Shown in pieces: positions 830-57,906 of a stretch of DNA of 64,000 bases. Numbering within the stretch: the stretch's first letter is position 1; every line of letters starts with the position of its first letter. The stretch comes from Candidatus Poribacteria bacterium. GTDB lineage: Bacteria > Poribacteria > WGA-4E > WGA-3G. A program made the translations under genes and the position numbers. Where the stretch lies: positions 608,001-672,000 of the forward strand of contig OZ251518.1 in NCBI GenBank assembly GCA_965242965.1, in the 5' to 3' direction. The notes under the pieces were generated by a model that saw only the letters and a program-made list of their open reading frames with translations, did no database searches and had not been told where the DNA came from.

Positions 830-2115
830 CGGTAGGAGACCTCCTGGTCTCAATTCCCCCGCCGTATCGGGACAAGGGCCCACCTCTGTAGTTCGGGAGC
901 ACCCGCTCCCGAACAGGTCAGGATCTGTTTTTTTTCGTAGCGCGGGGGCCTGTCCCCCGCGATCGTTGCATGGCGAGGGACAGGCCCTCGCCCTACGGTG
1001 AAGGGGCGGCGTTTTTTATCGCAGCGCGGTTGCCTGTTCTCCGCGAGCGGGCGTTTTTTTTCGTAGCGCGGGGGCCTGTCCCCCGCGATCTCCATCGTCA
1101 AGAGGCCATCTTAGGTCCTTTAGGACCTACATGTCTATAGCAGCCCGTGTCGGCCCGTTTTCAAGGTCCTTTAGGACCTTAATAAAAAACACGCCGCATC
1201 TCAAAACCTATTAAGGACCTAAAGGACCTTAAGCTTCTTCGCCAGCGCGCGTGCTATAGACATTAAGGTCTTACAGACCTTTTTGTTCTCCCCTCTCTGT
1301 AGTTTGTGATCGCCTGATCACAAACGGGTGAGGATCGCTTGGTAAATATGCCAGAGCTTCAGGCGATCTTAACCTACAGAGCCTGGCGAGCCAGCGAGCG
1401 ATGGCGAGGGACAGGCCCTCGCCCCTACGTGAAAGGGTGACCTTTTTTACCGTAGCGCGGGGGCCTGTCCCCCGCGATCTCCATCGTCAAGAGTGGCGTT
1501 TTAGGTCCGTTAGGACCTACATGTCTATAGAAAAACATGCCGGCTCACGTCAAGGTCCGTTAGGACCTTAATAAAAAAAACACGCCGCATTTCAAAGCCT
1601 ATTAAGGACCTAAAGGACCTTAGCGTTTTTCACAGCCTCACGTGCTATAGACATTCAGGTCCTACGGACCTGAAGAGAACCAGAGACGTTTTTCCAGAGA
1701 GCGAACGATGGCGAGGGATGGCGTTTTTTTTCGTAGCGCGGGGGCCTGTCCCCCGCGATCTCCATCGTCAAGAGGCCATCTTAGGTCCTTTAGGACCTAC
1801 ATGTCTATAGCAGCCCGTGTCGGCCCGTTTTCAAGGTCCTTTAGGTCCTTAATAAAAAACGCGCGGACCCAGCAAAATCTATTAAGGACCTAAAGGACCT
1901 TAGGCTTCTTCGCCAGCGCGCGTGCTATAGACATTAAGGTCTTACAGACCTAAGAAGCGTTTTTTTTCGTAGCGCGTGGGCCCTCGGATGCGATACGCGC
2001 ATCCGAGCGGGTTTCCCCCGCGATCGTTACATGGCGAGGGACAGGCCCTCGCCCTACGGTGAAGGGGGCTCTCTGCCGCCCTATTGCATCGAGACCAGGA
2101 GGTCTCTCCTACCGG
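830..2115. repeat. Cluster of GTAG-headed REP-like palindromes plus three ~170-bp AGGTCC/CTATAG units
   Basis: Repeated GTAGCGCGGGGGCCTGTCCCCCGCG, GTAGGGCGAGGGCCTGTCCCTCGCC, GTAGGAGA(GA)CCTCCTGGTCTC, GTAGTTTGTGATCGCCTGATCACAAAC; AGGTCCTTTAGGACCT units at 1113-1280, 1503-1671, 1783-1951. Confidence 0.9.
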
Positions 2116-2132
2116 GGAAAACAACATCCCCC

Positions 2133-4025
2133 TCACAATTCAATCAATTCATCAACGCCTTCAACAATTTTCAAAAACCGATTCACTTTGACACCGGAAA
2201 AACGATGCACGGTGCCACTAGGCCACCGAATCTCCAATGCCACGTTATCTCTCATCCCCAAGCCGAAATGCACGCGCAGGTCGTTTTGTGAGAGATAACT
2301 TGAACCACTCCGCACCTCTCTCACTTGACGATGCTCACCAGCCGTGAGGACGACACGCGCACCGATGGATTTGCCGCGCAACGTGAGAATTAACCAATTC
2401 CCCATGCGAGCTCCGCCATCGTTCCGTAAAATATCCACGCTATCGCCGACATTGGAGACGACGATATCCAGATCTCCATCGTTATCCAGGTCCCCCACCG
2501 CGCTGCCGCGACTGGAACGAATTAACGCCAACCCTGAACCGCTCTCCTCGGCGACATCGATGAACGTGCCATCGCCTTTGTTCCAAAAAAGGTGGTTTCG
2601 CTGCGCATACGTCGTTGAACTATCGATGAGCGTGACGTTGTCGTGGATATGTCCATTCGCGACGAAAATGTCCTGAAACCCATCCTGGTCAAAGTCAAAA
2701 AAATTCACACCCCATGCTAAATAGGGGAGGCTGACGGTTGCGGTACGCGAGGCATCTGTCCTGTCCGTGAAAAACCCATCGCCGTCATTGTGATAGAGCG
2801 TGTTGGTTTGGTGCTGGAAGTTGGTAACCCCGAGGTCAAGGCGCGCGTCGTTGTCGTAATCACCGAAGGCGACACCCATGCCGTTTTCAACTAGACCGTG
2901 CTCGCTGAGCGCAACGCCCGCGAGTTGACTCTGCTCCTGAAACTTACCGTTCCCATCGTTGACATAAAGGAAATTGGCATCGGCATCGTTGGCGACGTAA
3001 AGTTCAGCATCACCATCGTTGTCAACATCGCCGAAGGTTACGCCTAAGCCGCGCGCCGCAAAAGTGCCAAACCCAGCCTCGCGCGTCGCTTCGGTAAATG
3101 TGCCATCGCCGTTATTCCGAAAGAAAACGTCTTTCACGCCGTGATATGCACGCGGACTGCAGTAGACCAGGATGCCGTTGACCCGGCACGGCGTATGCGT
3201 TTCCACTGAAAATGTAACGTAGTTCGCGACGTAAAGTTCCAGGTCTCCATCAGCGTCCACATCTGCGAAGGCACAGCCTGCGCTCCACGCCGGCACCTCA
3301 ACGCCTGCCGCCGCCGTTGTATCGGTAAACGTCCCATCACCGTTATTCCGATAAAGCACGTTCGGACCGAAGTTCGTCACGTAAATATCCAGCCAACCGT
3401 CATTATCATAATCGCCGACGCAGACCCCTACCCCGTAACCGCGATGTCCCACGCCGCTCGCTTCAGTAACATCAACGAAATGCCCGTTGCCATCGTTGCG
3501 ATAGAGACGATTCATCGCCGTAGGAGAGACCTCCCGGTCTCGATTCCCCGTAGGAGAGCCCTCCTGGTCTCGACTCCCCCCGTATCGGGACAAGGATGTC
3601 CCTCCTACCCGGACATCAGTAGGAGAGACCTCCCGGTCTCGACTCCTCCCCGTAGGAGAGCCCTCCTGGTCTCGATGTGTTTCGTATCGGGACAAGGATG
3701 TCCCTCCTACCCGGACATCGGTAGGCGCGCCCTCCTGGTCTCGATGCAACCTCCCCGTAGGAGAGACCTCCCGGTCTCGATTCCCCCCTGCATCCAAATT
3801 CGCGCCGTTAACGAGATAGATATCGACATCGTCATCGTTATCGTAATCAAACAACGCAACCCCAGAACCCAGCGTTTCAACGAAATACTTCTTGTAGCTG
3901 CGGCCATCTACGTGCGTGAAACTAACGCCGCTTTGCGCAGTTACGTCTGTGAATGTGACAGCCGGGCGCGCGTTCGCATAAGAAATAATAAGAGAGATGG
4001 AAATGAATAGGTATCCGATTTTCAT
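2133..4025 (-). CDS. CRTAC1-family (FG-GAP repeats + ASPIC/UnbV) secreted protein with a 90-aa REP-derived insertion
   Basis: Signal peptide; repeated GDYDNDGxLD motifs; C-terminal GSSYLSQNDLRVHFGLG and IRWPSG. Confidence 0.9.
   Translation of the reverse strand: MKIGYLFISISLIISYANARPAVTFTDVTAQSGVSFTHVDGRSYKKYFVETLGSGVALFDYDNDDDVDIYLVNGANLDAGGNRDREVSPTGRLHRDQEGAPTDVRVGGTSLSRYETHRDQEGSPTGRSRDREVSPTDVRVGGTSLSRYGGSRDQEGSPTGNRDREVSPTAMNRLYRNDGNGHFVDVTEASGVGHRGYGVGVCVGDYDNDGWLDIYVTNFGPNVLYRNNGDGTFTDTTAAAGVEVPAWSAGCAFADVDADGDLELYVANYVTFSVETHTPCRVNGILVYCSPRAYHGVKDVFFRNNGDGTFTEATREAGFGTFAARGLGVTFGDVDNDGDAELYVANDADANFLYVNDGNGKFQEQSQLAGVALSEHGLVENGMGVAFGDYDNDARLDLGVTNFQHQTNTLYHNDGDGFFTDRTDASRTATVSLPYLAWGVNFFDFDQDGFQDIFVANGHIHDNVTLIDSSTTYAQRNHLFWNKGDGTFIDVAEESGSGLALIRSSRGSAVGDLDNDGDLDIVVSNVGDSVDILRNDGGARMGNWLILTLRGKSIGARVVLTAGEHRQVREVRSGSSYLSQNDLRVHFGLGMRDNVALEIRWPSGTVHRFSGVKVNRFLKIVEGVDELIEL
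3519..3788. repeat. In-frame array of 8 REP-like palindromes inside the CRTAC1 gene
   Basis: 6x GTAGGAGAG(A/C)CCTCC(C/T)GGTCTCG-type and 2x GTAGGAGGGACATCCTTGTCCCG; 270 nt. Confidence 0.9.
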
Positions 4026-7000
4026 AGGCGCAGTTCCGGCAATCCCTCCACAATCCGCAACGTCTCCAAACTCACCGTAATCACCGAACCGATGAGTTCC
4101 ACGAGATACCGCGGGCGCGCCGCATCGTTCGGATCGTTGACAATGCCACTCCGTTTATCTGTCTTCACCTGATACTGATCGATCACCCACTCCAACGCTG
4201 AACGGGTGCCGAGCCGATACGCAAACGCCTCTGCCGGAATATCTGCCAACGTGAGATACTCGTTATATTTCAGTTGCGTTTTGTCCTTGGATAACCGCAT
4301 CCGTTCCACGCGCAAGTCAAGCGGCGCATCAGGTTTGGTGATGAAATTGAGCGGATACTGGGGCGATGTCTCATAATTGAGGTGCAGTTCGGCGAGTTGC
4401 GCACCGGCGTTCGCGAATGCCCAGAAGTCCTCGGCATAGGGGATGTGCGGTAAATCGCGCTTCATGTCGGCGGCGTAACGTTCGCGATATTCGGGATGGT
4501 GCAAGACAGCGTAATTATAGTGGAAAATATCCCACTTTGTGATAGTGGTATCGCCGTAATGTGCGCGGAAGTCTTGCAACGCCCAGTCGGTGATGTTTTC
4601 GCGGCGGTTAGTGCCATCTTCATCGTAAATATAGAAGGGGAAGCATTGTGAACCGCTTTGCGGCATGCTGTCGCAAATTTTGTTCGTCATGAGCGCGAAC
4701 ATGGGCCAGTCTTGCCCCGTTTTGAGCCAGATGACCTGGTTTTCTCTTTCGGTATCAAGAATGGGAAAGATAGAGGGAAATCTCCCAACCCGTTCGTTAA
4801 GCGTTCTGTCAAAATAGAGAGTTGACTTTGTAAACGGACGATAGAGGGTTGTCCGAATGTTCTCGGGCACGAATTCAATGGGCATCCCTTTTTCCAATGC
4901 CGATTTCAGTTTGGTGCTCCACTTGATTTTCGTGCCATCGGTATTCACGAAATTATCGACATCGACATCCTGAACTGTCCGCCGTTTCCATTTGCCCTCT
5001 TCTGCATGGTAGAAGTCGAGCATCTCGGTTAGTTTTTCGGTGAGAGTCTGTCGGTTGAAGTTGTAAACCCATGCATCGCGACTTGTTGTAACACCGAGGC
5101 TAAACGAGTGGAAGATCACTCCCTCTGCTTGTCCCTTCGTGCGTTTGGCTGATTTACTACCTATCGGGATGAAGGTTGTCCATTCGTCGCGGAGTCCTTC
5201 GGTGAGCCACGTGTGCCGTTCGTCAGGCGTGAGTGTTTGCCACGGGATATTCCCGAGGTTTTCGACTTGCGCGAGGAAGTCGAATTTCTGGTTTTTGTTC
5301 CACGCGTCATCGGTGCGGTAGTAGAAAATACGAGCAGAATTGTCCCTGTTACCGTAGGGCGAGGGCCTGTCCCTCGCCATGTCATGATCGCGGGGGACAG
5401 GCCCCCGCGCTACGGTAGAGAGCGGTTCTTCTGCGTCATGATCGCGGGGGACAGGATTGTCCCCGTTACCGTAGGGCGAGGGCCTGTCCCTCGCCATGTC
5501 ATGATCGCGGGGGACAGGCCCCCGCGCTACGGTAGAAAACGGTTCTTCTGCGTCGCGCTCGCGGGGGACAGGATTGTCCCCGTTACCGTAGGGCGAGGGC
5601 CTGTCCCTCGCCATGTCATGATCGCGGGGGACAGGCCCCCGCGCTACGGTAGAAAACGGTTCTTCTGCGTCATGCTCGCGGGGGACAGGCCCCCGCGCTA
5701 CGGTAGAAAACGGCTCCTTCGCCGTGTTCTTGACGAAGATGTTGATGCTTACGCCGACCTGGATGCCGAAGACGCTTGCATCGGAGACGAGTTTACCTCG
5801 CCGCGCATTTCCGCCGAGGTCGAGGATATAGATCTCGTCAAAATCGGTGGCAAGATGCTTTCGCATTCCATCAAACGCCTTTGCGTCAAGAAAACCGTTG
5901 TTCGTCACTAAGGCGACGATACCCGACTTGCCGATTCTGTCCGATGCCCAGCGAATCGATTTGACATACGTATCGTAGAGTGTATTCTTGGCACTGGCTT
6001 TTGAGTCCAAGGCGTAGGTTTCCCGCAGTCGTTTGTCCATCGCGGGATACTTCCGATTTTGGTTGTTATCGTTCGCGTTCTGCTGTCCGACGTTATAAGG
6101 CGGGTTACCGATAATCACGAACATCGGTGCAGTCTTCTGTTTCTCGACGCGCGCCGTGTTTTCGGCGGTTAAGAGGGACAGCTGCCGGTCTTCCGCCAGA
6201 TCGAACGTGTCGACAAGCGAGATGCCTTCAAACGGGAGATAGGTGTTGGTGGCACTGTAAAACTCGCGTTCGATGTTGAGGCTGGCGATGTAATACGGTA
6301 GCAACAGCACTTCGTTGCACCAGAGTTCGGAACGATATTTCGCTTCCAGTTTGAACGTGTCAATTTCGCGCATCAGGCGGACAATGAAATTGCCGGTGCC
6401 GACGAACGGATCGATGATATGAACGCCTTCATCGGAAAGCGAACGTCCGAACTCGGTTTGGAGGAGATGGTTTACGCTCTTCACCATGAAGTCAACGATA
6501 GGTTGCGGCGTATAGACGATGCCGTGCGTATCGGCAACGTCGGCGGATGCGCCTTGGAAAAATTGTTCGTAGACGGTATTGAGGAAGTGCTGCTTCTGCG
6601 AGAAATCGACGAGGGTGGCTGCCTCGCGTTCGATTTCGCGATAGAACCGGTCGAGGCTTTGGAGGAACTCGCCTCGGCTAAACGCCTGCGCTGCAAGGGC
6701 ATCGATGACCTTTTCGATTTCGCGGGCGATGATATTGCGGCGCGTGAAATCAGGATTGTTAAACACCGTGCGGAAGGTGCGTTCTGTCAAGAGATGCTGG
6801 ACGAGCATCTTCTCCACCGCCGCTTCGGAGAGGTTGGGGTTGATGGCGGTTTGGCAGAGTTGATGGAAATCGGCGAATGCGTTACGGAATTGCGGGTTCG
6901 TTTCGTGTTGCGTCCGGATGAGACCCGCGACCTCGCGCTCCAGTTCCGGCACGAGGGTTTTGAATTCGGCGACGGCGGCTTCCCACTTGGCGGCGTTTTC

Positions 7001-7450
7001 GCGTTCATAGCCGAAGAATAGTTGTAAAACATCGACGAGAGTGCCCGGGTCGGTGATGTCCGCGTCCAGCACTTCCTTGCCGTTCTGATAGAGAATGGCG
7101 CGTTCCGGCGTTTGGAAGAGGATGTTGTCCTGTGGGTAATCGGCATCGAACTTGGTTTGGATTTCGGCACGGAGGTTTCCGTGAACGCCTTTCGCCTCCC
7201 AAGTGCCGCGCGGTAACCGGTGCCGGTCGAACAGCATGCCATCTAAACGGATAGGATTTCTGCCGGGGACGCGAAGCGTTTGCTCACAGATGAGCGTCCA
7301 CTTTACCTGTCGTGCACAGGTTTCCAGCAGTGTTTGGAAGGCGGCGCGCACGGCGGTCTCGTGCGTGGCGCGCTGGTGCCGGTATTCGTCCAGCGCGGTG
7401 TAATAGGTAGTCACCACTTTGTGGTGCGGTTTGAGATTCAATGTCGGCAT
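4022..7450 (-). CDS. Single-chain restriction-modification enzyme: N-terminal PD-(D/E)xK-like nuclease, N6-adenine MTase and type ISP-like C-terminal specificity domain; no helicase
   Basis: RLDG...WEAK; GIVYTPQPIVDFMV; motif I DPFVGTGNF; motif IV GNPPY; YRPFTK, DIFHYNYAVLHHPEYRERY and RSALEWVIDQY typical of type ISP C-termini. Confidence 0.85.
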   Translation of the reverse strand: MPTLNLKPHHKVVTTYYTALDEYRHQRATHETAVRAAFQTLLETCARQVKWTLICEQTLRVPGRNPIRLDGMLFDRHRLPRGTWEAKGVHGNLRAEIQTKFDADYPQDNILFQTPERAILYQNGKEVLDADITDPGTLVDVLQLFFGYERENAAKWEAAVAEFKTLVPELEREVAGLIRTQHETNPQFRNAFADFHQLCQTAINPNLSEAAVEKMLVQHLLTERTFRTVFNNPDFTRRNIIAREIEKVIDALAAQAFSRGEFLQSLDRFYREIEREAATLVDFSQKQHFLNTVYEQFFQGASADVADTHGIVYTPQPIVDFMVKSVNHLLQTEFGRSLSDEGVHIIDPFVGTGNFIVRLMREIDTFKLEAKYRSELWCNEVLLLPYYIASLNIEREFYSATNTYLPFEGISLVDTFDLAEDRQLSLLTAENTARVEKQKTAPMFVIIGNPPYNVGQQNANDNNQNRKYPAMDKRLRETYALDSKASAKNTLYDTYVKSIRWASDRIGKSGIVALVTNNGFLDAKAFDGMRKHLATDFDEIYILDLGGNARRGKLVSDASVFGIQVGVSINIFVKNTAKEPFSTVARGPVPREHDAEEPFSTVARGPVPRDHDMARDRPSPYGNGDNPVPRERDAEEPFSTVARGPVPRDHDMARDRPSPYGNGDNPVPRDHDAEEPLSTVARGPVPRDHDMARDRPSPYGNRDNSARIFYYRTDDAWNKNQKFDFLAQVENLGNIPWQTLTPDERHTWLTEGLRDEWTTFIPIGSKSAKRTKGQAEGVIFHSFSLGVTTSRDAWVYNFNRQTLTEKLTEMLDFYHAEEGKWKRRTVQDVDVDNFVNTDGTKIKWSTKLKSALEKGMPIEFVPENIRTTLYRPFTKSTLYFDRTLNERVGRFPSIFPILDTERENQVIWLKTGQDWPMFALMTNKICDSMPQSGSQCFPFYIYDEDGTNRRENITDWALQDFRAHYGDTTITKWDIFHYNYAVLHHPEYRERYAADMKRDLPHIPYAEDFWAFANAGAQLAELHLNYETSPQYPLNFITKPDAPLDLRVERMRLSKDKTQLKYNEYLTLADIPAEAFAYRLGTRSALEWVIDQYQVKTDKRSGIVNDPNDAARPRYLVELIGSVITVSLETLRIVEGLPELRL
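5336..5716. repeat. In-frame 117-bp tandem repeat built from REP-like palindromes inside the R-M gene
   Basis: GCTACGGTAG recurs at 5409, 5526, 5643 (period 117); unit encodes EPFSTVARGPVPRDHDMARDRPSPYGNGDNPVPRxxDAE. Confidence 0.9.
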
Positions 7451-7458: not shown

Positions 7459-8235
7459 CTATGCAGCGTTCGGGAGTTGTAACGTTGTGCGGATAGCGTG
7501 GCGGACTTCAGTGCAGATATACACGGCATGTTCAACCTCCGCTTCTGTTGCATAATAGGTTTCATAGCGGACATCCATGGCGTGTGGTTTGAATCTCTCG
7601 AAGTCAAGCCGCCATGCGCGCCACTCGGGGCGCGTCGGGACGATCAGATTCAACAATTCGTTTAAATCGTGCGTCCGCGGCACCGGCAAGTTTGCCTCTT
7701 GTAGCCACGCCTTGAGGTATTTCTCGATACACATCTGCGCGTGGGACCAGATTAAGTCATAGAGTTTGGATGTCAATGCCTGTTGAAACCGCTCGATTCC
7801 TGCCCAATGTGATTCGGCTGGCCTCACTTTTTCGAGCGTCAAGGGATTGATAACCCCGTTTTCCTCCCAGATGGGCACCAAAGCATCTTCGGCGAGTTCT
7901 ATCGGCGGCAATGCGTTTTCTGTGTCGTAAAGCACGCTGCCTTTTTCGATTACCTCTCGCAGAAACCAGTCGTTGTGTGAGACGCGATACGCAATATCTG
8001 CAGGTGAACGGACGAGTAAGTCCATCGGGAACCGCTGCGGAATACGCCGCTGAATCTCGTTTCTTTTCTCTCGCCGTTCTGTCTCGGTGACATCCATCAC
8101 CACGAACAGGTCGACATCCGATTCTTCTGTCGGCGGGTTGCCATACGCGTAAGAACCGAAGAGGATAACCTGCAGCGGCGCGAATTCGCGGACAATGTCA
8201 TCGCAAGTGGCTTGAATCTGTTTTGCGGAAATCAT
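7459..8235 (-). CDS. Fused minimal nucleotidyltransferase (MNT)-HEPN protein, copy 2
   Basis: ILFGSYAYG...SDVDL (MNT); HAQMCIEKYLKAWL...PRTHDL...VRY (HEPN). Confidence 0.85.
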   Translation of the reverse strand: MISAKQIQATCDDIVREFAPLQVILFGSYAYGNPPTEESDVDLFVVMDVTETERREKRNEIQRRIPQRFPMDLLVRSPADIAYRVSHNDWFLREVIEKGSVLYDTENALPPIELAEDALVPIWEENGVINPLTLEKVRPAESHWAGIERFQQALTSKLYDLIWSHAQMCIEKYLKAWLQEANLPVPRTHDLNELLNLIVPTRPEWRAWRLDFERFKPHAMDVRYETYYATEAEVEHAVYICTEVRHAIRTTLQLPNAA

Positions 8236-9017
8236 GAGGTTGTATCTCCGTTGTTCGGGAGTTGTAGCGTTGTGCGGATAGCGTGGCGGACTTCGGTGCA
8301 GATATGCACAGCATGTTCAGCGTCTGCCTCCGTCGCGGAATAGGTTTCATAGCGGACATCCACGGCGTGTGGCTTGAATCTCTCGAAGTCAAACCGCCAT
8401 GCATGCCACTCGGGGCGCGTCCGCACAATCAGGCGCAACAACTCGTTTAAATTGTGCGTCCGAGGCACACGCAGATTCGCCTCCTGCAGCCACGCCTTCA
8501 GGTATTTTTCGACACACTGCTGCGCGTGGAAACAGATTTGATCGCGGAGAGGTCTGGGTGCCTGCTGCACCAGTGTCAGCATCGTATCCCAATCATCCTC
8601 AGCATTCTGCACTTTCTCGCGTGTCAATGGATTCATGGTCCCGTTTTCTTCCCAGACCGGCACCAAAGCATCCTCGGCGAGTGTCATCGGCGGCAATGCG
8701 TCTTCTGTCTCGTAAAGCACGTGCCCTTTTTCGATTACCTCGCGGAGGAACCAGTCGTTATGCGAGAAACGATACGCGATATCCTCCCGCGAACGAACCT
8801 GCAAATCGAGAGGGAAACGTTCGGGGATACGTTCTTTAATCTCGCATCGCTGCTGCCACGTCTCTGATTTTAGAATATCCATCACAACGAGCAGATCGAT
8901 GTCGGAGTCTTCAGTTGGCGCGCCATATGCGTAAGAACCGAAGAGGATAACCTGCAGCGGCGCGAATTCGCGAACGATGTCATCGCAGGTGGCTTGAATT
9001 TCTTTTGCGGAAATCAT
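8232..9017 (-). CDS. Fused MNT-HEPN protein, copy 1
   Basis: ILFGSYAYG...DSDIDL; FHAQQCVEKYLKAWL...PRTHNL...VRY; ATG at 9017 with GGAGA RBS, same context as copy 2. Confidence 0.85.
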   Translation of the reverse strand: MISAKEIQATCDDIVREFAPLQVILFGSYAYGAPTEDSDIDLLVVMDILKSETWQQRCEIKERIPERFPLDLQVRSREDIAYRFSHNDWFLREVIEKGHVLYETEDALPPMTLAEDALVPVWEENGTMNPLTREKVQNAEDDWDTMLTLVQQAPRPLRDQICFHAQQCVEKYLKAWLQEANLRVPRTHNLNELLRLIVRTRPEWHAWRFDFERFKPHAVDVRYETYSATEADAEHAVHICTEVRHAIRTTLQLPNNGDTTS

Positions 9018-9054
9018 GAGGTTGTGTCTCCGTTTTTTTTGGGGTTTTGATTTT

Positions 9055-9119
9055 AGTATAACATGCAAAGGTCGGAAATGTCAAGATGTTTTGCAATAAA
9101 ACGATTTTCGTGGTAAACT
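9055..9119. promoter_or_regulatory. Divergent sigma70-like promoters
   Basis: Minus strand TTGACA(9079-84)-18-TATACT(9055-60); plus strand TTGCAA(9091-96)-17-TAAACT(9114-19). Confidence 0.55.
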
Positions 9120-11204: not shown

Positions 11205-11990
11205 GTAGGACAAGCGTAGGAGAGACCTCCTGGTCTCGATGCAATAGGGCGGCGGAAAGCCTCCCTTCATCGTAGGGCGAGGGCCTGTCCCTCGCCATCG
11301 TCCGCGTAATCCAACGATCGCGGGGGACAGGCCCCCGCGCTACGATAAAAAACGCCCCCCCTTCACCGTAGGGCGAGGGCCTGTCCCTCGCCATCGTTCA
11401 CGCGCCAGGCTCTGTAGGTCAAGAGCACCTGCTCTTGACCCGTTTGTGATCAGGCGATCACAAACTACAGAGGAGGAAACACACATCATGACGATGGGGA
11501 TCGCGGGGGACAGGCCCCCGCGCTACGATAAAAAAACGGTTCCCGAACCATCGCGGGGGAAACCCGCTCGGATGCGCGTGTGGCATCCGAGGGCCCCCGC
11601 GCTGCGATAAAAACGTCCCCCTCACCGTAGGGCGAGGGCCTGTCCCTCGCCATGTGTTTTTGTGTCAGAGCGCATCACACCTGTAGGTCAGGATCGCCTG
11701 ATCCTGACCCGTTTGTGATCAGGCGATCACAAACTACAGAGGGGGAAACACACATCATGACGATGGAGATCGCGGGGGCAACCCTCTCGGATGCGCGTGT
11801 GGCATCCGAGGGCCCCCGCGCTACGATAAAAAACGTCCCGCTCACCGTAGGGCGAGGGCCTGTCCCTCGCCATCGTTCACGCGCCGGGCTCTGTAGGTCA
11901 AGAGTGCCTGCTCTTGACCCGTTCGGGAGCGGGCGCTCCCGAACTACTTTCATGTTCGTAGTGCGGGGGCCTGTCCCCCGCGCTCGGTGC
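11205..11990. repeat. REP-like palindrome cluster between convergent genes
   Basis: Multiple doublets of the same palindrome families. Confidence 0.9.
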
Positions 11991-14959: not shown

Positions 14960-15054
14960 GTTTCTCTCCGTATATCTGTCATCAAGGGTGTTGATGACTC
15001 CGTTTTTGGTTTATTTACGTCTTGACACGGTGCGGAACAAGTTTTCCTCGCTCT

Positions 15055-15185
15055 ACACTTTGACATGGCGCAGGACAGGCCCGCGCCCTACGAAATGAAG
15101 GTGCCCCTCTCTGTAGGGCAAGATCGCCTGATCTTGACTCCTGACACTTTGACATGGCGCGGGACAGGCCCGCGCCCTACGGACT
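15055..15185. repeat. REP-like palindromes inside the secretion operon
   Basis: 2x ACACTTTGACATGGCGC(A/G)GGACAGGCCCGCGCCCTACG flanking GTAGGGCAAGATCGCCTGATCTTGAC. Confidence 0.75.
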
Positions 15186-15198
15186 AACGGCGAATCTG

Positions 15199-16431: not shown

Positions 16432-16437
16432 GTTGTG

Positions 16438-18273: not shown

Positions 18274-18306
18274 TTTGTCCCTTTAGGGCTTGCGTAAGTC
18301 CTATCC

Positions 18307-19800: not shown

Positions 19801-20678
19801 TGCGGTGGCCCTCCCTGTCCTTCTTGTGCGGGTGGAGCTTGCGGCAAAGCAACCATCGTCGTCTGGCTCATCGTGTTGGGCGGCGTTCCCGTTTGCATCT
19901 GCGTTGTCTCAACGCTTTGAGGACGCGAATCTTCCCCTTTCACGGTGATTAAAACGCGCACGGCATAAGGGTTGCTGTCTTCCTGTTCCCATGAATCATA
20001 CCAAGTCCCTTCGTCACCGAGGTATTTCAGATCGAAGTTGACAATTCCGGTGACGAGTGTTGCACTCTGAAAGTAGACAGGCTCGCCGTTTTCGTCGGTT
20101 TGTGGGACCGTGCCGGTATCCATCAAGGAACCGATAACCACTTCCGGATTAAGCGCAGTAGTTGTCACCCGGTAAAGTGCTAGTTCCTCTGTCTCTGTTG
20201 CGGCGTTCGGGAGTTGGAAGTTGTTCCCGCCGGTGCCTCCCGGCGGCATCTCTGCCCGAACGAAATAGGCGACGCGCTGAACATCGCTCATCAACGGCGG
20301 CACAGCCAAACTGCTGCTCGTTTGTTGGCGACTGGCGTTGAGTTGCGCCAAAAACGGATCTGGGGCTGTCCTCACCAACGTGACGAAACTGAGCATATCC
20401 CGTTCTCCCGAATCAGAAGGCACGTCTTGTGTGTATAGCACAAAATCGGGCTCTTCCGGTGCGGCTTGGAAGTGCTTCAGATCGGTCGCGAGCGTATCTA
20501 ACGCTACCCGAGTCCGCTGAGCGGCGAGTATCTTCGCCCCAGTCTGGTGATAGGCATCAAGCGAGGTTTTGAATACGGCATAGGCTGCACCGGCGATAAT
20601 GGCGAGCACGCTCACAGAGACGAGCATCTCGACGAGGGTAAAGCCGCTTTCATGGGGTGCTGTGTAACGCGTATGCAT
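19797..20678 (-). CDS. gspJ: GspJ-like minor pseudopilin
   Basis: Prepilin motif G|FTLVEML; C-terminal WYDSW...PYAVRV. Confidence 0.7.
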   Translation of the reverse strand: MHTRYTAPHESGFTLVEMLVSVSVLAIIAGAAYAVFKTSLDAYHQTGAKILAAQRTRVALDTLATDLKHFQAAPEEPDFVLYTQDVPSDSGERDMLSFVTLVRTAPDPFLAQLNASRQQTSSSLAVPPLMSDVQRVAYFVRAEMPPGGTGGNNFQLPNAATETEELALYRVTTTALNPEVVIGSLMDTGTVPQTDENGEPVYFQSATLVTGIVNFDLKYLGDEGTWYDSWEQEDSNPYAVRVLITVKGEDSRPQSVETTQMQTGTPPNTMSQTTMVALPQAPPAQEGQGGPPQ

Positions 20679-20743
20679 CCGATGTTCCTCGCTCAGTGGA
20701 CAGTGGACAGTGGACGCAGTTTTTAACCGCGCCCACCGGTTTT

Positions 20744-21136: not shown

Positions 21137-21159
21137 GGTTTTTATTTTGCTTCCGCACA

Positions 21160-21305: not shown

Positions 21306-21333
21306 GTACCGTGTGTTGTGGAATGCAGTTGGT

Positions 21334-22287
21334 TTATTGAGAACGTTCATTATCTTCAAACCCCAGTTCTGCAACTTCTTCATTCGTAAGTTGTCGGACG
21401 CTGACGCGCCCACTCGCCGCCTCAACGGTGACAGACATCACCCGATTTTGACGATTACGAAGATAAATCTGTGTATCCTCAGAAGACGCAGTCGGCGAGA
21501 AGTAGACATACTCCACTCCCGAATTGGCGTGCGCTGTCTGTCCGTTATGGTTCGTTATCACTGCTTCAAGCGTCACCTGCTGTTCCAACGCCTGCGGCAC
21601 GCCGAGGATGCCGCCCGTGCGCGTTAATCCCTGTTGGACAGTTTCCGCTGCGGTGGTGTTTTGTCGAAAAGTCGTTCCCTCTGTCAGCACCGAAGCCAGC
21701 GGTTCTTGCGGATTGAACGTTTCGCTGGAGGCGAGCCAGCACTGCTCCCTGTCCAGGTCTAACACGACGAGATGCCCTGTCCGTTCCGTGATGGCCATAT
21801 CTCGCGCGAAAACGAGCAGGTTGCGGACAGTTTGCGCCGATGCCTTCAATCGGCGTGTCGAAGCAAAGCCTTTCAGCGCGGGCATGGAAATCGCGGACAG
21901 CACGGCGATGATTGCCATGACGAGGAGTAGTTCCATCATCGTGAAGCCGTGCGCGGAAACGTTTTTGGTTTCTGTCGGGCGATCGCGAGGGACAGGCCCT
22001 CGCGCTACGGCAGCCGGAGCGGTTTTTGTCTTAAACTGGCGATCGCGAGGGACAGGCCCTCGCGCTACGGTGTCCGGAGCGGCTTTCGTCTTAAGCGGAT
22101 GTTCGCGAGGGACAGGCCCTCGCGCTACGGTGTCCGGAGCGGTTTTTGTTTCAAGCGGGCGATCGCGAGGGACAGGCCCTCGCGCTACGGTAGCCGGATA
22201 GACGGTATCCGGATAGGACGAGTGTGCGTCAGTTGTTCGCCTGCTGCCCTGACTGCCAATTGGTAATGTCCGCGTCAAAATTCTCAC
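21334..22287 (-). CDS. gspH: GspH/FimT-like pseudopilin with a REP-expanded leader; start codon uncertain
   Basis: G|FTMMELLLVMAII; the only in-frame start upstream of the cleavage site is GTG 22287. Confidence 0.65.
   Translation of the reverse strand: MRILTRTLPIGSQGSRRTTDAHSSYPDTVYPATVARGPVPRDRPLETKTAPDTVARGPVPREHPLKTKAAPDTVARGPVPRDRQFKTKTAPAAVARGPVPRDRPTETKNVSAHGFTMMELLLVMAIIAVLSAISMPALKGFASTRRLKASAQTVRNLLVFARDMAITERTGHLVVLDLDREQCWLASSETFNPQEPLASVLTEGTTFRQNTTAAETVQQGLTRTGGILGVPQALEQQVTLEAVITNHNGQTAHANSGVEYVYFSPTASSEDTQIYLRNRQNRVMSVTVEAASGRVSVRQLTNEEVAELGFEDNERSQ
21961..22200. repeat. Four 60-bp tandem units, each carrying a REP-like palindrome
   Basis: TCGCGAGGGACAGGCCCTCGCGCTACGG at period 60. 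Confidence 0.9.
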
Positions 22288-22984: not shown

Positions 22985-22997
22985 ACCTAAATCCTTT

Positions 22998-29599: not shown

Positions 29600-30160
29600 T
29601 CAAGACCGGGAGGTCTTGATATCGTCTGCGCAATCCAACGCTCGCGGGGGAAACCCGCTCGGATGCGCGTGTGGCATCCGAGGGCCCCCGCGCTACGAAA
29701 AAAATAACGCCTGCCTTTCACCGTAGGGCGAGGGCCTGTCCCTCGCCATCGTTCATGCACGCGTCATTTGACGCTCGCGGAGGACAGGCCCCCGCGCTAC
29801 GGGGAAAAAAACGGCACTTCACCGTAGGGCGAGGGCCTGTCCCTCGCCATCGTGCGTGCGCCAGGCTCTGTAAGTCAGGATCGCCTGATCCTGACCCGTT
29901 TGTGATCAGGCGATCACAAACTACAGAGGTGGAAACACACATCGTGACAATGGAGATCGCGGGGGACAGGCCCCCGCGCTACGATGAAAAAACGGTTCTT
30001 GAACCATCGCGGGGGACAGGCCCCCGCGCTACGATAAAAACGCCCCCCCCTCACCGTAGGGCGAGGGCCTGTCCCTCGCCATCGTGCGTGCACCCCAACG
30101 CTCGCGGGAGACAGGCCCCCGCGCTACGGAACATCGAGACCAGGAGGTCTCTCCTACCGG
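29600..30160. repeat. REP-like palindrome cluster
   Basis: Same modules as 11205-11990, with long near-identical blocks. Confidence 0.9.
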
Positions 30161-39558: not shown

Positions 39559-41142
39559 ATGCGAATTTCCAAAAAAAAGTTCATCACCATAATCCTCATC
39601 GCGCTCATCGGAGTTATTATCTTGCTAGCCGCTATTTACCACCACACCGCGCTCTGGAAACCTGAACAAAGCCTCATCACGCTACTGCCAGAGGCACCAA
39701 TCTGTTATCTTACCTTGAAAGACCTGGGTTCTCTCGTCAAGACGTTCACACGGAGCGAGTTCGGGAAACAGGTGGCAGAGATGCCTCTCCTCGCCGAGAT
39801 TCAGGGGCAACGCTGGTGGAAAGAACTCGCCTATCAGAAGGCACTCTGGGAACACGAAATGGGCGGCAAACTCGATTTGGCAACCGTCAAGGCTTATTTC
39901 GGTGAGGAGACTATCCTCGCGCTTTACGAACGGGACGATGAACTCTCGTTCCTGCTCATCAGCGTCGTCGGTGGCGCAGAGAAATTAAGCATTGAAGCAC
40001 TCACCGCCACCGATGTCATAAATCCGCAATATCAGCGCATCCAAACGGAGCATAACGGGCTCACGGTGAATACGATAATCGGTTACCCGCGCGATTTCAG
40101 TTATGCCTTCATTGGCAAAGTCGGGGTGCTGAGTCTCAGCTATCCCTTGTTAACGGAGACGCTTGATATCTATACCGGGAAAAAGGCGGGTTTCCTTGCG
40201 CGCCATCCGATGCAGGGTGACTACGAAAGCGACAAAAATACCGGGTATGTGGATATGCCACGACTGGCGGCCGCGCTAAAAGAGACGGTGCCTCAGTTGC
40301 GCAGTATTGTTGAACTGAGTGCGTCGCTGCTTGGAGATGCAACACCCTGGTCCTTCGGAAATCGGTATGAAGATGGGGTGGTGATTTCGCGGCATTTGAT
40401 ACGGCATCGAGAGCGGGAAGGCGCGCCGACAGGAAGAAATCGAGACCGGGCGGTCTCTCCTACGGGGAGGTTGCATCGAGACCGGGCGGTCTCTCCTACG
40501 GGGTTGCCGGAACGAACTGCGTTTGTTTCTGTCTTGCCAACGCCGCGCCAGATGCAGGAGCTCTTGCCAAATAGCGATTTGTCCCGGCACCTCACGGTAG
40601 GGTTCATCGCACCGAATCCGGAGGAGGTATCTGTCGTGCCATCGATAGTTTTGTTGATAAAGGGCAGCGAATTGGAAACCGATTTGGAACGTCTCAAAAC
40701 GCGAGAGATTTCTATTGCCGGCAAACCATTAGCATTCCTCGCGCCGCAGGATTATCTCGGGAGTGTCATCCAACCCTTCCAGTTGCGTTTCAATTTTCTG
40801 TTGGCACTTACCGGCGGCTATGCGATTGTCAACGATACGCTCGTCTTCAGCACAACGCTGCCGGGTTTAAAATCAGTAATTGACACGGCATCTGGGAATG
40901 CACCGGCGTTAGAGCTCGGTGAGGTGCAGATGTTCCTTGAACCGTCGCTATTCGTGCCGGAGGTGAAGCGGTTTTTGCCGTTGGTGACGCTGCTCGCCTC
41001 CGAACAACTCGTGGATGCGGCGTTGATAGAGCAGGTTAAGGAGAATCTGTTTCCGCTTGCATCCCTTGGCCCCATTTCTGTGAAAATTGTGGAACAGGCG
41101 GAAGCAACGGAGGCGGAGATTCGGGTGGTTTTAGAGAAGTGA
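39559..41142 (+). CDS. Membrane-anchored hypothetical protein with a REP-derived insertion
   Basis: N-terminal TM; 527 aa; RDRAVSPTG repeats at 40405-40503. Confidence 0.75.
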   Translation: MRISKKKFITIILIALIGVIILLAAIYHHTALWKPEQSLITLLPEAPICYLTLKDLGSLVKTFTRSEFGKQVAEMPLLAEIQGQRWWKELAYQKALWEHEMGGKLDLATVKAYFGEETILALYERDDELSFLLISVVGGAEKLSIEALTATDVINPQYQRIQTEHNGLTVNTIIGYPRDFSYAFIGKVGVLSLSYPLLTETLDIYTGKKAGFLARHPMQGDYESDKNTGYVDMPRLAAALKETVPQLRSIVELSASLLGDATPWSFGNRYEDGVVISRHLIRHREREGAPTGRNRDRAVSPTGRLHRDRAVSPTGLPERTAFVSVLPTPRQMQELLPNSDLSRHLTVGFIAPNPEEVSVVPSIVLLIKGSELETDLERLKTREISIAGKPLAFLAPQDYLGSVIQPFQLRFNFLLALTGGYAIVNDTLVFSTTLPGLKSVIDTASGNAPALELGEVQMFLEPSLFVPEVKRFLPLVTLLASEQLVDAALIEQVKENLFPLASLGPISVKIVEQAEATEAEIRVVLEK

Positions 41143-52376: not shown

Positions 52377-53471
52377 ATGATCCGTCTCAATTTCCGCAAA
52401 CGCCTCGGCAATTTCACGCTAAGTCTTGATTGCACGCTCGCCCAAAAGGTTACGGCATTTCTCGGCGAATCCGGTAGCGGCAAAAGCACTCTCCTCAACT
52501 GCATCAGCGGCATTCTCACCCCGGACGAAGGCGAACTCGCCTTCGGCGATGAAGTGCTGGACGATGCGAAAGCACGTATCCATCAGCCGCCAGAGAAGCG
52601 CAGATTCGGATGCGTGTTCCAGGAGGGAAACCTGTTTCCGCATCTCACCGTTGAACAGAATATCCGTTATGGTGAACCGTCTCGGAAGCGCGAGGCGCGT
52701 TTAAAAAACGCGCCCACGGATCTGGGTAAAGTCATTGATACGCTTGAAATCGGGATGTTGCTGAAACGATACCCACACCAACTTTCAGGCGGCCAACGTC
52801 AACGCGTCGCGATTGCACGCGCCCTCGCGATGGAGCCGCGGCTGTTGCTCATGGACGAACCCCTTGCATCGCTGGACACCGGTTTAAAAAACCGCATCTT
52901 GCCCTACCTCCGCCACGTGAAAGAGGCGTTTGACGTGCCGATGCTCTATGTCACACACGCAATTTCAGAGGCCATGGCGATTGCTGACGAAGCATTCCTC
53001 CTCGCCGATGGAGAAATTACCGCCAGCGGCGAACCGCATCAACTGCTCACTGCGCCAGCCGCGCTCCCTATTGCGCAATTAACAGGCGTAGAAAATATGT
53101 TATCCTTACCGATTGCCTTTTCAGACAAAGCGAGTGGGATAACGGCATTGCAAATCGGGGGACAGCGGATTGTAGTGCCTTACGCAGACCAGGGGCAAGG
53201 CATGAGTCAAGACGTGCCGATTGCCATCCGTGCAGAAGACATTATTATCTCGCTGGAACCGAATCTCCCTATCAGCGCGCGCAACATTTTAAAAGGGATT
53301 ATTCGCGAAATTCGCCGAGTTGGCGATAGAACGCTTTTGACTATTGACGTTGAGGGACATCCGCTGTCCGTGAAAATCACGCACGATGCGCGCGAACAAC
53401 TTCAGTTGCGTGAGGGGATGTCATGTTATTGTGTTATCAAGGCGAATGCGATTAATCTTCTGTGGAATTGA
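52377..53471 (+). CDS. modC: Molybdate ABC transporter ATP-binding protein with TOBE domains
   Basis: GESGSGKST, LSGGQRQR, LLMDEP, SARNIL. Confidence 0.92.
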   Translation: MIRLNFRKRLGNFTLSLDCTLAQKVTAFLGESGSGKSTLLNCISGILTPDEGELAFGDEVLDDAKARIHQPPEKRRFGCVFQEGNLFPHLTVEQNIRYGEPSRKREARLKNAPTDLGKVIDTLEIGMLLKRYPHQLSGGQRQRVAIARALAMEPRLLLMDEPLASLDTGLKNRILPYLRHVKEAFDVPMLYVTHAISEAMAIADEAFLLADGEITASGEPHQLLTAPAALPIAQLTGVENMLSLPIAFSDKASGITALQIGGQRIVVPYADQGQGMSQDVPIAIRAEDIIISLEPNLPISARNILKGIIREIRRVGDRTLLTIDVEGHPLSVKITHDAREQLQLREGMSCYCVIKANAINLLWN

Positions 53472-53489: not shown

Positions 53490-54123
53490 CATCGAGACTC
53501 CCTGGTCTCGATGTTCCCGTAGCGCGGGGGCCCTCGGAGGTTCCATACGCGCATCCGAGCGGGTTTCCCCCGCGCGCGCCATCGTCACGATGCTGTCTTA
53601 GGTCCTTTAGGACCTTAATGTCTATAGCAGCACGTGTCGTACCGTTTTCAAGGTCCTTTAGGTCCTTAATAAAAACACGCGCGGATCTGGCAAAAGCTAT
53701 TAAGGACCTAAAGGACCTTAGGGTGCGCTGCGATGCAGGATGCTATAGACATTAAGGTCTTACAGACCTTAGGCATGGCGAGGAACAGGCCCTCACCCTA
53801 CGGGTGAACGGGAACGATTTCTTAGTTGTTCCCGTAGCGCGGGGGCCTGTCCCCCGCGAGTTCCATCGTCCCGATGTGTGCTTCCCCTCTGTAGTTTGTG
53901 ATCGCCTGATCACAAACAGGTCAGGATCAGGCGATCCTGACCTACAGGGGGGGGATGCGATCTGACAGTAAGACGCATGGCGAGGGACAGGCCCTCGCCC
54001 TACGGTGCAAGCGGCAATCAAGCATGACGAGGGACAGGCCCTCGCCCTACGTGAAGGGGAGGCGTTTTTGCACCGGAGCAGGGGCCTGTCCCTGCGACGT
54101 TGAGCGAGTTATGAAACACTCTC
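53490..54123. repeat. REP-like cluster with one ~170-bp AGGTCC unit and a MITE terminal repeat
   Basis: AGGTCC unit 53600-53769; TTATGAAACACTCTC at 54109-54123. Confidence 0.88.
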
Positions 54124-54126
54124 AAG

Positions 54127-54872: not shown

Positions 54873-55838
54873 CTACGAATTGAGAGCGTCTTTCATCAAC
54901 GCATCATAATCGGCATTCACCAACTCAATTCCGTAAAACGCCAGCCGCTCCATGATTATCCGGATGGCAGGGAGGTTATTATCTACCAGAATCGATGAGC
55001 GTCCGTGCAATGCCGCCGCTTCGCCGAGGGTACCGCTACCGGCAAAGAAATCCAACAACGTGTCGCCCGGCGACGAATGCACCTTAACAATGCGATTTAA
55101 GATACCGAGCGGTTTCTGCGTCGGATACCCCGTCTTTTCACCGCTGCTTGTGCCGACGATGGTGTGCCACCAAACGTCTGTCGGCGTTTTGCCGCGCGCC
55201 GCCTTCTCCTTGCCGACGAGCCCCGGTGCCATATACGGAATCCTGTCCATCTCGTCAAAATTGAAGGTGTAATGCTTCGGGTTTTTGGCATACCACAAGA
55301 TGTTATCGTGCTTTGCGGGCCAGCGCGATTTCGGGCGGCCGCCGTAATCATAAGCCCAAATAATCTCGTTCATGAACCCCGCGCGCCCGAAGATTTCATC
55401 CAGCATCACCTTACAGTAATGCACTTCGCGATAATCGATATGCAGAAAAAAACTGCCGTGCGGATGCAACACCCGATATGCCTCTTCAAAACGCGGACGC
55501 AAAAACTGCAAGTAGGCATCGGAACTCTCGAATTTATCGGAATAATGAATTCGGGACAGGGATGTCCCTCCTACCGATTCATCGGAATTCTCGAATTTAT
55601 CTGAGTCATGAGGCCCGGACAGGGATGTCCCTCCTACCGGTTTAATGGTGCGGTAAGTCTTGCCTTGGAAACCGACTCTGTCGCCTTGCGCATCCTGAAA
55701 CACCTGAATTTCGTCGCGCTGTTGGATTTTGCCGGTGTTGAAAGGCGGATCGATGTAAACGGCATTAACGCTCTCATCTGCGACATGTTCCCGCAAGATC
55801 TTCAGGTTATCGCCGTAATAGAGTTGATGGGTAGACAT
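54873..55838 (-). CDS. Site-specific N4/N6 DNA methyltransferase (beta class), orphan
   Basis: YIDPPFNTG, YPTQKP, LDFFAGSGT; AAGGAG RBS before ATG 55838. Confidence 0.9.
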   Translation of the reverse strand: MSTHQLYYGDNLKILREHVADESVNAVYIDPPFNTGKIQQRDEIQVFQDAQGDRVGFQGKTYRTIKPVGGTSLSGPHDSDKFENSDESVGGTSLSRIHYSDKFESSDAYLQFLRPRFEEAYRVLHPHGSFFLHIDYREVHYCKVMLDEIFGRAGFMNEIIWAYDYGGRPKSRWPAKHDNILWYAKNPKHYTFNFDEMDRIPYMAPGLVGKEKAARGKTPTDVWWHTIVGTSSGEKTGYPTQKPLGILNRIVKVHSSPGDTLLDFFAGSGTLGEAAALHGRSSILVDNNLPAIRIIMERLAFYGIELVNADYDALMKDALNS

Positions 55839-57108: not shown

Positions 57109-57681
57109 TTGACACTAGGAAAACTCTTTAACCTTTGCCAAGACATTGAACTCCGGCAAGCCAAACTGTACGCCTCCCTCTCGTTACTTTTGGGAGGAGT
57201 TGATGAACGAATCGCGCGATTTTGGGAACGGATGAGCACCGAAGAGTGGCAACACTACATCCTCGTCGATTTCGGACGTTCCTTATGCGCTGAGACTTTC
57301 GGCACCGATTTGCAGGTGATGGAACTGCCGGATGTAGCGCGCCGATTGCCAGCGAATATCGGGAAGACAATCCAGCAGATTACCGAGGCGTTGGATGTGC
57401 ATGAGCGGAAGGTGAATAGCGGACAGATCACGCTGGACGAGGCGTTCGCTATTGCCGTCGCTATTGAAGGGAGCGAGGCGGATACCCTCTATATGTATCT
57501 GCTCGCCATCATCAGAAAGGCGATTCATCAGAGTGACCAGCCGTATTTGATGAGCCGTGTCGTGCAGGTTGAAAAAGACATGGTATCGCATGTAGACGGC
57601 CTCGTGCAGGCGACGCAGCGGTTCTCGAAAGATGCTAGTCTGATCCGTAGGGCGCATCGGCTCAAAGCGCATCATAACTAA
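57109..57681 (+). CDS. Ferritin-like/rubrerythrin-like protein
   Basis: E...LY...FWERMSTEEWQH...AVAIEGSE...H; AGGAGG RBS before TTG. Confidence 0.6.
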   Translation: MTLGKLFNLCQDIELRQAKLYASLSLLLGGVDERIARFWERMSTEEWQHYILVDFGRSLCAETFGTDLQVMELPDVARRLPANIGKTIQQITEALDVHERKVNSGQITLDEAFAIAVAIEGSEADTLYMYLLAIIRKAIHQSDQPYLMSRVVQVEKDMVSHVDGLVQATQRFSKDASLIRRAHRLKAHHN

Positions 57682-57685
57682 GGGG

Positions 57686-57906
57686 GGTAGACGTAGGCGA
57701 GACCTCCTGGTCTCGATGTCCCCGTAGCGCGGGGGCCTGTCCCCCGCGAGCGTTGCGAGAAATGCGGCTGACACCGTAGCGCGGGGGCCTGTCCCCCGCG
57801 ATCGTTGCATGGCGAGGGACAGGCCCCCGCCCTACGTTGAAGAGGCCGTTTTTTCCGTGGCGCGGGGGCTGTCACCGCGCCGTTGAACAAGTTATGAAAC
57901 ACCCTC
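57686..57906. repeat. REP-like cluster ending in a MITE terminal repeat
   Basis: GTAG palindromes; TTATGAAACACCCTC at 57892-57906. Confidence 0.85.

Follow-up and report, generated by a model that had tools for sequence, protein, structure and literature searches.

GTAG-type REP hairpins in a genus of Candidatus Poribacteria: a huge expansion, probably copied by RAYT transposases, with in-frame copies that are probably tolerated as protein loops

Background

How does a short hairpin repeat that crowds the spaces between genes come to lie within the genes themselves, in frame with them, and what becomes of the genes that receive it? This question is raised by a 64,000-nucleotide stretch of the genome of a Candidatus Poribacteria bacterium (hereafter the window, G000:C1:608001-672000; genome G000, 5.70 Mb in two contigs), in which palindromes headed by the tetranucleotide GTAG recur both between genes and inside them. 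An earlier, sequence-only reading of the window assigned them to the repetitive extragenic palindromes (REPs), which are mobilized by REP-associated tyrosine transposases (RAYTs), found them inside at least six otherwise intact genes and held that an active repeat system was adding low-complexity loops to proteins across the genome. Among named homologues, those closest to the CRTAC1 protein of the window come from Candidatus Poribacteria, and several of the sequencing runs that hold the window stretch are labelled as sponge metagenomes; no RNA run is listed among these runs.

Here we present evidence for a reading that we consider quite likely, namely that the palindromes are GTAG-type REPs which have expanded hugely in this genus of Poribacteria and were copied by RAYTs, and that a few per cent of them lie in frame within genes, where they are translated as tolerated, disordered loops.

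Results and discussion

A genus-specific expansion of GTAG-headed hairpins

A perfect hairpin follows 7,893 of the 32,869 GTAG sites (24%), as against 1.1-1.4% for seven control tetramers, which bears out the identification of the palindromes as REPs on a genome-wide scale. The commonest 16-mers, with more than 2,000 occurrences each, are themselves GTAG-headed hairpins, and 8.1% of the chromosome lies within 15-mers that occur at least 25 times. Calling units on C1 with seven family patterns and up to three mismatches gave 9,524 units of 22-24 bp, versus 23 on the reversed chromosome that served as control, or a density of 1,682 units per Mb. Family A is the largest (4,528 units), followed by B (1,828), C (1,753), A2 (562), B2 (399), D (237) and F (217). 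For the top stems of A, B and C, the copies headed by GTAG number 3,663, 1,184 and 588, respectively. The units fall into 2,033 clusters, 360 of which are single copies, and neighboring units are inverted in 4,257 of 7,491 cases.

For comparison we used two congeners, G001 (86% complete) and G002, together with 38 other genomes of the same order. Matches to a family-A pattern number 3,670 in G000, 700 in G001 and 378 in G002, with none in the 38 others; those to a family-B pattern number 1,321, 27 and 186, with 3 more in one other genus and none in the remaining 37 genomes. Within the set of genomes searched, the expansion is thus genus-specific and reaches its height in this species.

Few units lie within genes, and those that do keep the frame

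A purpose-written dicodon gene caller delineated 4,104 genes, which make up 80% of the genome. The high-copy repeats are mostly extragenic, with 8,959 of the 9,524 units (94%) being wholly intergenic. We regarded a unit as internal to a gene when coding signal was present on both sides of it, which set aside 282 terminal or doubtful units (101 N-terminal, 26 C-terminal, 140 overlapping gene ends and 15 dubious); REP-holding N-termini of long open reading frames (ORFs), such as those of coaE at 54788 and an oxidoreductase at 41188, were likewise treated as likely extragenic. This leaves 283 units internal to 136 of the called genes, in 151 clusters, of which 37 span at least 30 aa. Internal units thus amount to 3.0% of the total in a genome that is 80% coding, and genes are therefore strongly depleted of REPs rather than preferred by them. 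The notion that the repeats colonize genes is overstated in view of this depletion and of the contribution of tandem growth to insert length considered below.

None of the 283 internal units is read in the frame in which the G-TAG head gives a stop codon. This avoidance, which the sequence-only reading had claimed, is a consequence of the units lying in ORFs. All five other frames are used, unevenly: at the gene level the counts are 29, 4, 10, 3 and 14 for family A (P=2e-5) and 26, 14, 8, 9 and 22 for family B (P=1e-3), these counts being inflated by paralogues, and the frame of family A that contains Cys is rare. The four recurring peptides picked out earlier (TVARGPVPR, MARDRPSPY, RDREVSPT and VGGTSLS) are all present in the named ORFs.

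A polymorphism in the loop of family B offers a further view of the inserts as coding sequence. The ratio of C to T at this position is 818:795 in extragenic copies, 40:4 where T would specify Trp and 20:3 where it would specify Leu; combined, the sense frames show 60:7 versus 45:26 in the antisense frames (P=3e-4 by unit, 0.008 by gene). This depletion of Trp- and Leu-coding variants within genes suggests that the inserts are translated, and there is probably selection on their peptide content.

The integrity of the host genes was assessed against G002, in a comparison that covered 2.4 of 5.0 Mb and 1,673 proteins of at least 120 aa, 1,465 of them with an orthologue. It includes 64 REP-bearing pairs from 62 distinct G000 genes, some of them matched to paralogues; the CRTAC1 and Type ISP genes of the window fall outside these pairs and were aligned separately. 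Of the pairs with a REP in the homologous span 59 of 64 are open end to end, versus 1,372 of 1,401 pairs without one. In four of the five exceptions the interruption lies away from the REP, three having stops at the alignment terminus and one a frameshift some 950 nt ahead of the REP; the REPs of the fifth are in a doubtful N-terminus. The ratio of nonsynonymous to synonymous substitution rates (dN/dS) outside the inserts has a median of 0.121 and a maximum of 0.23 across 59 host pairs. Among the G002 orthologues of hosts (55 proteins scanned) are ClpB, UvrA, HisC, DapF, alanine racemase and ribokinase. Four of these six are each encoded at a single locus in the genome, the exceptions being HisC and UvrA, each with one further homologue. 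Furthermore, of 92 intragenic tandem neighbors, 91 have a period divisible by three, versus 488 of 1,251 others, and all the length alleles found at host genes are in frame. Together, the substitution rates and the preserved frames indicate that the hosts are not pseudogenes and evolve under purifying selection. A CopA-like P-type ATPase gene (G000:C1 ~5,193,130) has a frameshift near a run of A residues, far from its REPs, which could be an assembly error.

Six host genes of the window

In the window there are 106 units, grouped into 22 clusters (Table 1). Among the six genes named as hosts, those for CRTAC1, the restriction-modification enzyme, the 527-aa protein and the DNA methylase have clear arrays within the gene that relatives lack or have in another form, whereas the cases of gspH, with an array in the leader, and modC, with a decayed copy, need qualification.

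The insert site of the CRTAC1 gene is empty in both congeners. Alleles of 562, 574, 574, 579, 585, 598 and 630 aa are 94-97% identical outside the insert, and the empty forms measure 544-545 aa; a possible shorter allele in contigs from the sequencing runs (joint at 3518-3791, side of 29 nt) was excluded from these counts. In a structure model, residues 79-167 have a predicted local distance difference test score (pLDDT) below 50 and no secondary structure, the rest being mostly confident (mean 73.8); the insert is accordingly predicted to be disordered. In a more distant Poribacteria homologue (P0056, alignment A1 columns 418-456), a different repetitive insert of 39 aa occupies another loop, and other genera may make inserts likewise with their own repeats.

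In the Type ISP enzyme, residues 577-702 align opposite residues 580-584 (about four residues) of PDB 7LO5, and an inverted pair of its array has a folding energy of -31.4 kcal/mol (z -8.4). The G002 enzyme has three family-B units at the very site that is filled by family A in G000. Across all 122 homologues the loop ranges from 9 to 133 aa, with 29 loops of at most 16 aa, 50 of 17-30 aa and 43 longer ones, in a set biased toward long loops because the query contained the insert; assigned by eye, with no count per family, these loops are REP peptides of several families and frames. Type ISP genes are multi-copy in G000 (C1 773531, 1095918 and 3227360, besides the window copy at 4022-7450), with REP-derived sequence in the same loop of each and, in two of them, REPs also near residue 60.

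The gspH frame is open, and its sole upstream start codons (GTG/TTG), which are conserved in both congeners, precede the array; no start codon was found between the array and the Gly-Phe-Thr motif. The array, lying upstream of the prepilin motif and downstream of the starts, is therefore in the leader and not in the mature protein. Type IV prepilins are processed by removal of the leader, and the REP-bearing leader is accordingly predicted to be cleaved. Four alleles have 4, 4, 5 and 5 units with the frame kept, and G001 has one.

In the 527-aa protein the units replace a linker of similar length, the sequence of which is unrelated in seven orthologues from other genera, and add 12 aa relative to G002; contigs of two other runs hold variants with a net change of -66 and -33 nt at this site, their short sides measuring 27 nt. 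The modC hairpin escapes the seven family patterns, is common to G002 and lies in a loop that is variable in other genera too, and is an old copy rather than a recent insertion. The match to the modC gene of G001 (C197:2-823) is split in two, the parts sharing about 30 query residues in a single open frame, which suggests a longer insert in the same loop. Finally, the DNA methylase is longer by 27 aa than seven orthologues from other genera, and its second unit stands between two copies of about 30 bp of host coding DNA, a layout seen also in 3 other full-length alleles.

Table 1. Positions in the window of the host genes, their inserts and five intergenic clusters
Feature	Position	Strand	Remarks
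CRTAC1/ASPIC-UnbV FG-GAP protein, 630 aa	2133..4025	-	Pfam FG-GAP_3, UnbV_ASPIC; homologues named CRTAC1 family protein
CRTAC1 in-frame array, 8 units (6 B, 2 B2)	3520..3778	.	+258 nt / +86 aa, residues ~80-167
Type ISP restriction-modification enzyme, 1142 aa	4022..7450	-	Pfam Type_ISP_C, ISP_coupler, N6_Mtase; PDB 7LO5 E=1.2e-189
Type ISP in-frame array, 7 family-A units	5354..5701	.	Three inverted pairs, 117-bp period; loop after methylase part
GspH-like pseudopilin frame	21334..22287	-	Long leader before Gly-Phe-Thr motif; within type II secretion gene cluster
gspH leader array, four tandem family-A units	21985..22188	-	60-bp period
Conserved Poribacteria 527-aa protein	39559..41142	+	No Pfam match; orthologue in 19/20 other genomes searched
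527-aa protein insert, two family-B units	40442..40499	-	36-bp period; after a decayed unit
ModC-like ABC ATPase with TOBE domain	52377..53471	+	Pfam ABC_tran, TOBE
modC decayed GTGG-headed family-F-like hairpin	~52694..52717	-	In variable loop; folding -11.5 kcal/mol, z -4.2
N6/N4 DNA methylase, 321 aa	54873..55838	-	Pfam N6_N4_Mtase; start by gene caller and protein collection
DNA methylase insert, two family-B2 units	55553..55637	-	Units 63 bp apart
Intergenic mosaic cluster, 12 units	888..2112	.	Families A, A2, B, C, D
Biggest intergenic cluster of the window, 15 units	11216..11981	.	
Intergenic cluster, 10 units	29675..30157	.	
Intergenic cluster, 7 units	53519..54050	.	
Last intergenic cluster in range, 4 units	57693..57835	.	

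Turnover at shared sites and duplication of flanking DNA

The empty sites expected of inserted elements were recovered by alignment with orthologues, in both congeners for CRTAC1 and in seven orthologues from other genera for the methylase. For 72 intragenic clusters compared with G002, REPs were called at the corresponding site of that genome in 33 cases; the sequence was shorter there in 27 and of similar length in 12, where a decayed REP peptide is frequent. The REP calls and decayed peptides at the same sites imply that old insertions were kept and remodelled, permissive loops being hot spots, and several sites common to G000 and G002 are filled by different families. Much of the insert length is due to tandem growth at a limited number of permissive sites, many of them common to a congener. 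The length alleles show that change is ongoing, in keeping with the view of the system as active.

A direct repeat of host DNA flanks 43 of the 360 isolated copies (32 of 127 in family B). The duplications have a median length of 29 bp (17-32 bp between the 10th and 90th percentiles), most of their periods are 63-69 bp, and 13 of the 43 end exactly at the GTAG head; a control with swapped flanks gave no duplications, whichever of three thresholds was applied. Periods divisible by three occur at all six intragenic sites versus 14 of 37 extragenic ones. Same-strand doublets of family A gave no direction in a test of polarity: of 51 doublets, the spacer matched the 3' flank in four and the 5' flank in three. 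Our literature search, which left subscription journals outside its scope, retrieved no paper on long target duplications at REPs.

The resident RAYT and a model for the spread of the units

The search for a RAYT flanked by such palindromes, as anticipated by the sequence-only reading, was successful. G000 has one intact RAYT gene (C1:3147526-3147930; NF047646, 120.6 bits against a cut-off of 80), free of stops, with the HUH and Tyr motifs present and the core uninterrupted by REPs, and 17 hairpins of the family-C type lie within 1.5 kb of it. RAYTs score above the cut-off in 22 of the 41 genomes; that of G002 is 59% identical to the G000 protein and is flanked by families B and B2, and the 86% complete G001 gave no match. 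No cognate RAYT for families A, D and F was found among 30 RAYT-type loci of relatives. A second search of G000 for a family-A RAYT found none, and a metagenome scan gave 116 pattern matches, none of which was confirmed. In other Poribacteria genera, distinct GTAG families surround the RAYT genes, with up to 22 hairpins within 1.5 kb. A second Y1 match in G000 was rejected as a RAYT, being the broken TnpA of an IS200/IS605 element (G000:C1:3123891-3127127) beside an intact-looking TnpB of 408 aa.

TnpA-REP is reported to nick single-stranded DNA 5' or 3' of the hairpin, leaving a 3'-OH that could serve as a primer for replication or as the attacking group in strand transfer, in an account that describes the dissemination mechanism of REPs as unresolved (PMC8266576). 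We propose that: 1) In line with the RAYT literature, a RAYT would bind the single-stranded hairpin and nick nearby, whereupon a copy would be placed at a new site. 2) Copying primed at the nick may duplicate the adjacent 30 bp or so, which would account for the host duplications of about 29 bp, often ending at the GTAG head, that are observed around many isolated copies. 3) Within genes only those copies that keep the frame and avoid stops persist, as observed, in loops, linkers and leaders. 4) The direct repeats would seed arrays, which through slippage or unequal recombination could grow, shrink and admit other families, as the alleles attest. 5) Selection would also favor frames and variants lacking Trp, Leu and Cys, a step to which the statistics of frame and variant use lend support. 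The loops themselves are most likely near-neutral passengers.

Alternative explanations

Several observations weigh against this model. Family A, the largest, is not the main flanking repeat at any of the 30 RAYT-type loci inspected, the RAYT of family B sits in G002 and not in G000, and family C, to which the resident RAYT belongs, supplies just 5 of the 283 internal units. At score 15, random sites yield 9 duplications in 360 versus 39 for REPs, and a duplication is present at just 6 of the 77 isolated intragenic copies. In the variant test, intragenic units of G002 carry C in 59 of 60 cases, in every frame, so that age confounds the Trp/Leu comparison; and dN/dS of hosts, which are longer genes, is slightly above that of other genes (0.121 vs 0.100, n=1,368; P=0.003). 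The presence of a single RAYT for seven families, and of none found to be cognate to family A, would be accommodated if no RAYT were placing or expanding copies at present, and the units spread instead by gene conversion onto look-alike native sequence, by slippage or as cargo of miniature transposons. Consistent with this, G002 has a REP call or a stretch of similar length at the same site for 44 of the 72 intragenic clusters, which implies that much of the change is turnover in place, and the empty CRTAC1 site of G001 contains a 9-mer that matches the family-B stem at 8 of its 9 bases. We nevertheless regard this alternative, which alters only the first two steps of the model, as unlikely, since slippage cannot generate a first copy, RAYT genes throughout the order have GTAG families particular to each genome at their flanks, and isolated copies bear long duplications that often abut the head (distance 0 in 13 of 43).

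Of the explanations that concern the fate of the inserts, one would have them be adaptive, with REP arrays diversifying protein loops such as the one that separates the methylase part of Type ISP enzymes from their specificity part. The loop of 9-133 aa in all 122 homologues, its several REP families and frames (by eye), the presence of different families where G000 and G002 share a site, and the retention of some inserts since these species split are all in line with it. A merely permissive loop predicts the same pattern, however, and the units are strongly depleted in genes (3.0% vs 80% coding), while neither the length nor the sequence of the ISP loop is conserved, short forms are common (29 of 122 with at most 16 aa) and the insert-containing query favors long loops; adaptive inserts thus strike us as quite improbable. 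Decidedly unlikely, too, is the bolder proposal that the REP/RAYT system is a built-in generator of loop diversity, in which duplications of about 30 bp would seed arrays re-colonized by other families, and this hypervariable loop by the specificity part of the multi-copy Type ISP enzymes would tune activity or phage defense. That the hosts might instead be decaying pseudogenes of a symbiont under relaxed selection gains something from the slightly raised dN/dS, the sponge-associated lineage and the very high repeat load; set against the values of at most 0.23 in all 59 pairs, the frame kept across alleles and arrays and the single-copy housekeeping genes among the hosts, it is very improbable. 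Lastly, no short-read contig reaches across an array, the contigs being broken there, as would be the case if the inserts were artefacts of assembly at repeats. Other assemblies, including multi-megabase contigs, have in-frame arrays at the same sites, contigs of run X10 (records 2 and 3) enter the CRTAC1 array from the unique sequence at either side, and assembly errors would not preserve periods divisible by three, which renders this explanation extremely improbable. On balance, RAYT-copied REPs that persist as tolerated loops remain our preferred reading.

Relationship to known systems

By every feature testable here, save a cognate RAYT for each family, the elements are assignable to the GTAG REP class. 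Intragenic GTAG REPs were surveyed by Di Nocera, De Gregorio and Rocco in 2013 (PMC3733652), with most cases in Opitutus terrae (70 rows and 62 ORFs by our own count of Additional file 3), where the hosts include 6 ASPIC/UnbV proteins, UvrA and an N-6 DNA methylase; intragenic clusters of Thauera encode 43-64 aa. That survey places the intragenic copies in flexible loops by reasoning and warns of misannotated N-terminal cases (PMC3733652). Its REPs and ours share the GTAG head with a short hairpin, occurrence as singles, dimers and clusters, the association with RAYTs and in-frame copies in unrelated genes, and the Poribacteria units are intragenic in the same sense, lying inside ORFs with coding sequence on both sides and having shorter homologues. 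They differ from the cases given there in affecting at least 136 genes, with 283 units, arrays of up to ~130 aa and different families, and, relative to the content of PMC3733652 drawn on here, they add allele series, empty sites and tests of selection. In-frame residence is hence already known for the GTAG REP class and the phenomenon is not new; what is added is its scale, the allele series, the evidence of selection on frame and probably on the peptides encoded, the re-colonization of the same loops and the long flanking duplication.

RPE-1, a Rickettsia palindromic element (RPE), is longer than the 22-24-bp units of Poribacteria. The sequence-only reading had presented the Rickettsia elements as the classic in-frame exception; that they are the only precedent is not supported, given the many genes with in-frame GTAG REPs already tabulated in 2013 (PMC3733652). 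According to that survey RPE-1, RPE-4 and RPE-6 likewise lie in frame in many unrelated proteins, and RPE-1-bearing proteins are reported as expressed; RPE-4 and RPE-6 are tagged by CGTC and have, as described there, no known transposase, in contrast to the GTAG-headed, RAYT-associated and tandemly arrayed units of Poribacteria (PMC3733652). Hairpins at CGTC sites of G000 occur at the background rate of 1.1% and a RAYT is present, so we rejected membership among the Rickettsia elements. We also rejected the units as miniature inverted-repeat transposable elements, since they are single hairpins with an unpaired head and long, variable flanking duplications (17-32 bp); this applies to the units and not to larger shells around REP clusters.

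The REP/REPIN-RAYT systems, or REPtrons, of E. coli, Pseudomonas and Stenotrophomonas (PMC3686654, PMC8266576, PMC6006769, bioRxiv 10.1101/2021.07.10.451892) similarly combine a single-copy HUH/Y1 RAYT and its cognate hairpins with extragenic copies and lineage-specific families. The copy numbers given in these sources are hundreds to over a thousand per class, as against 3,670 matches to a single family-A pattern here, and the flanking duplication of ~29 bp is a Poribacteria feature without a counterpart in the portions of this literature consulted. In TnpA-REP subclass 2.4, in-frame REPs likewise form a variable peripheral loop (Quentin et al. 2018, PMC6006769); in that case it is the transposase gene that receives the REPs, whereas in Poribacteria the RAYT core is uninterrupted and the REPs lie in other genes. 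Literature searches, with subscription journals outside their scope, yielded no paper on REPs in Poribacteria.

Other features of the window and genome

Twelve more small clusters of 1-5 units each lie between genes or at gene ends in the window. A non-GTAG module of about 170 bp with twin motifs has three repeats within 1100-1955 and one within 53537-53772, and its k-mers occur more than 400 times in the genome. C1 also has two different 37-nt repeats that resemble CRISPR repeats, one of them in 26 exact copies. Directly upstream of the Type ISP gene, at 7459-9068, are two tandem genes for fused nucleotidyltransferase and HEPN domains (258 and 261-278 aa), which are 74-86% alike in DNA and resemble a duplicated module of the MNT-HEPN toxin-antitoxin type. 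A type II secretion/pilus-like cluster on the minus strand, at 12005-26114, encodes a secretin, a PilM-like protein, GspK, pseudopilins, GspF and GspE.

Conclusions

With 1,682 units per Mb, this is probably among the densest REP systems described, and the number of genes it invades is about double that of the largest case reported in 2013, as counted from the tables of that survey (PMC3733652). In the annotation of Poribacteria, peptides derived from REPs inflate the lengths of proteins and give rise to spurious N-terminal extensions. The ~29-bp duplication beside the GTAG head is a footprint relevant to how RAYTs copy REPs, and the natural allele series, of 0-86 aa in CRTAC1 and 9-133 aa in Type ISP enzymes, map permissive protein sites and let selection on newly coding sequence be measured.

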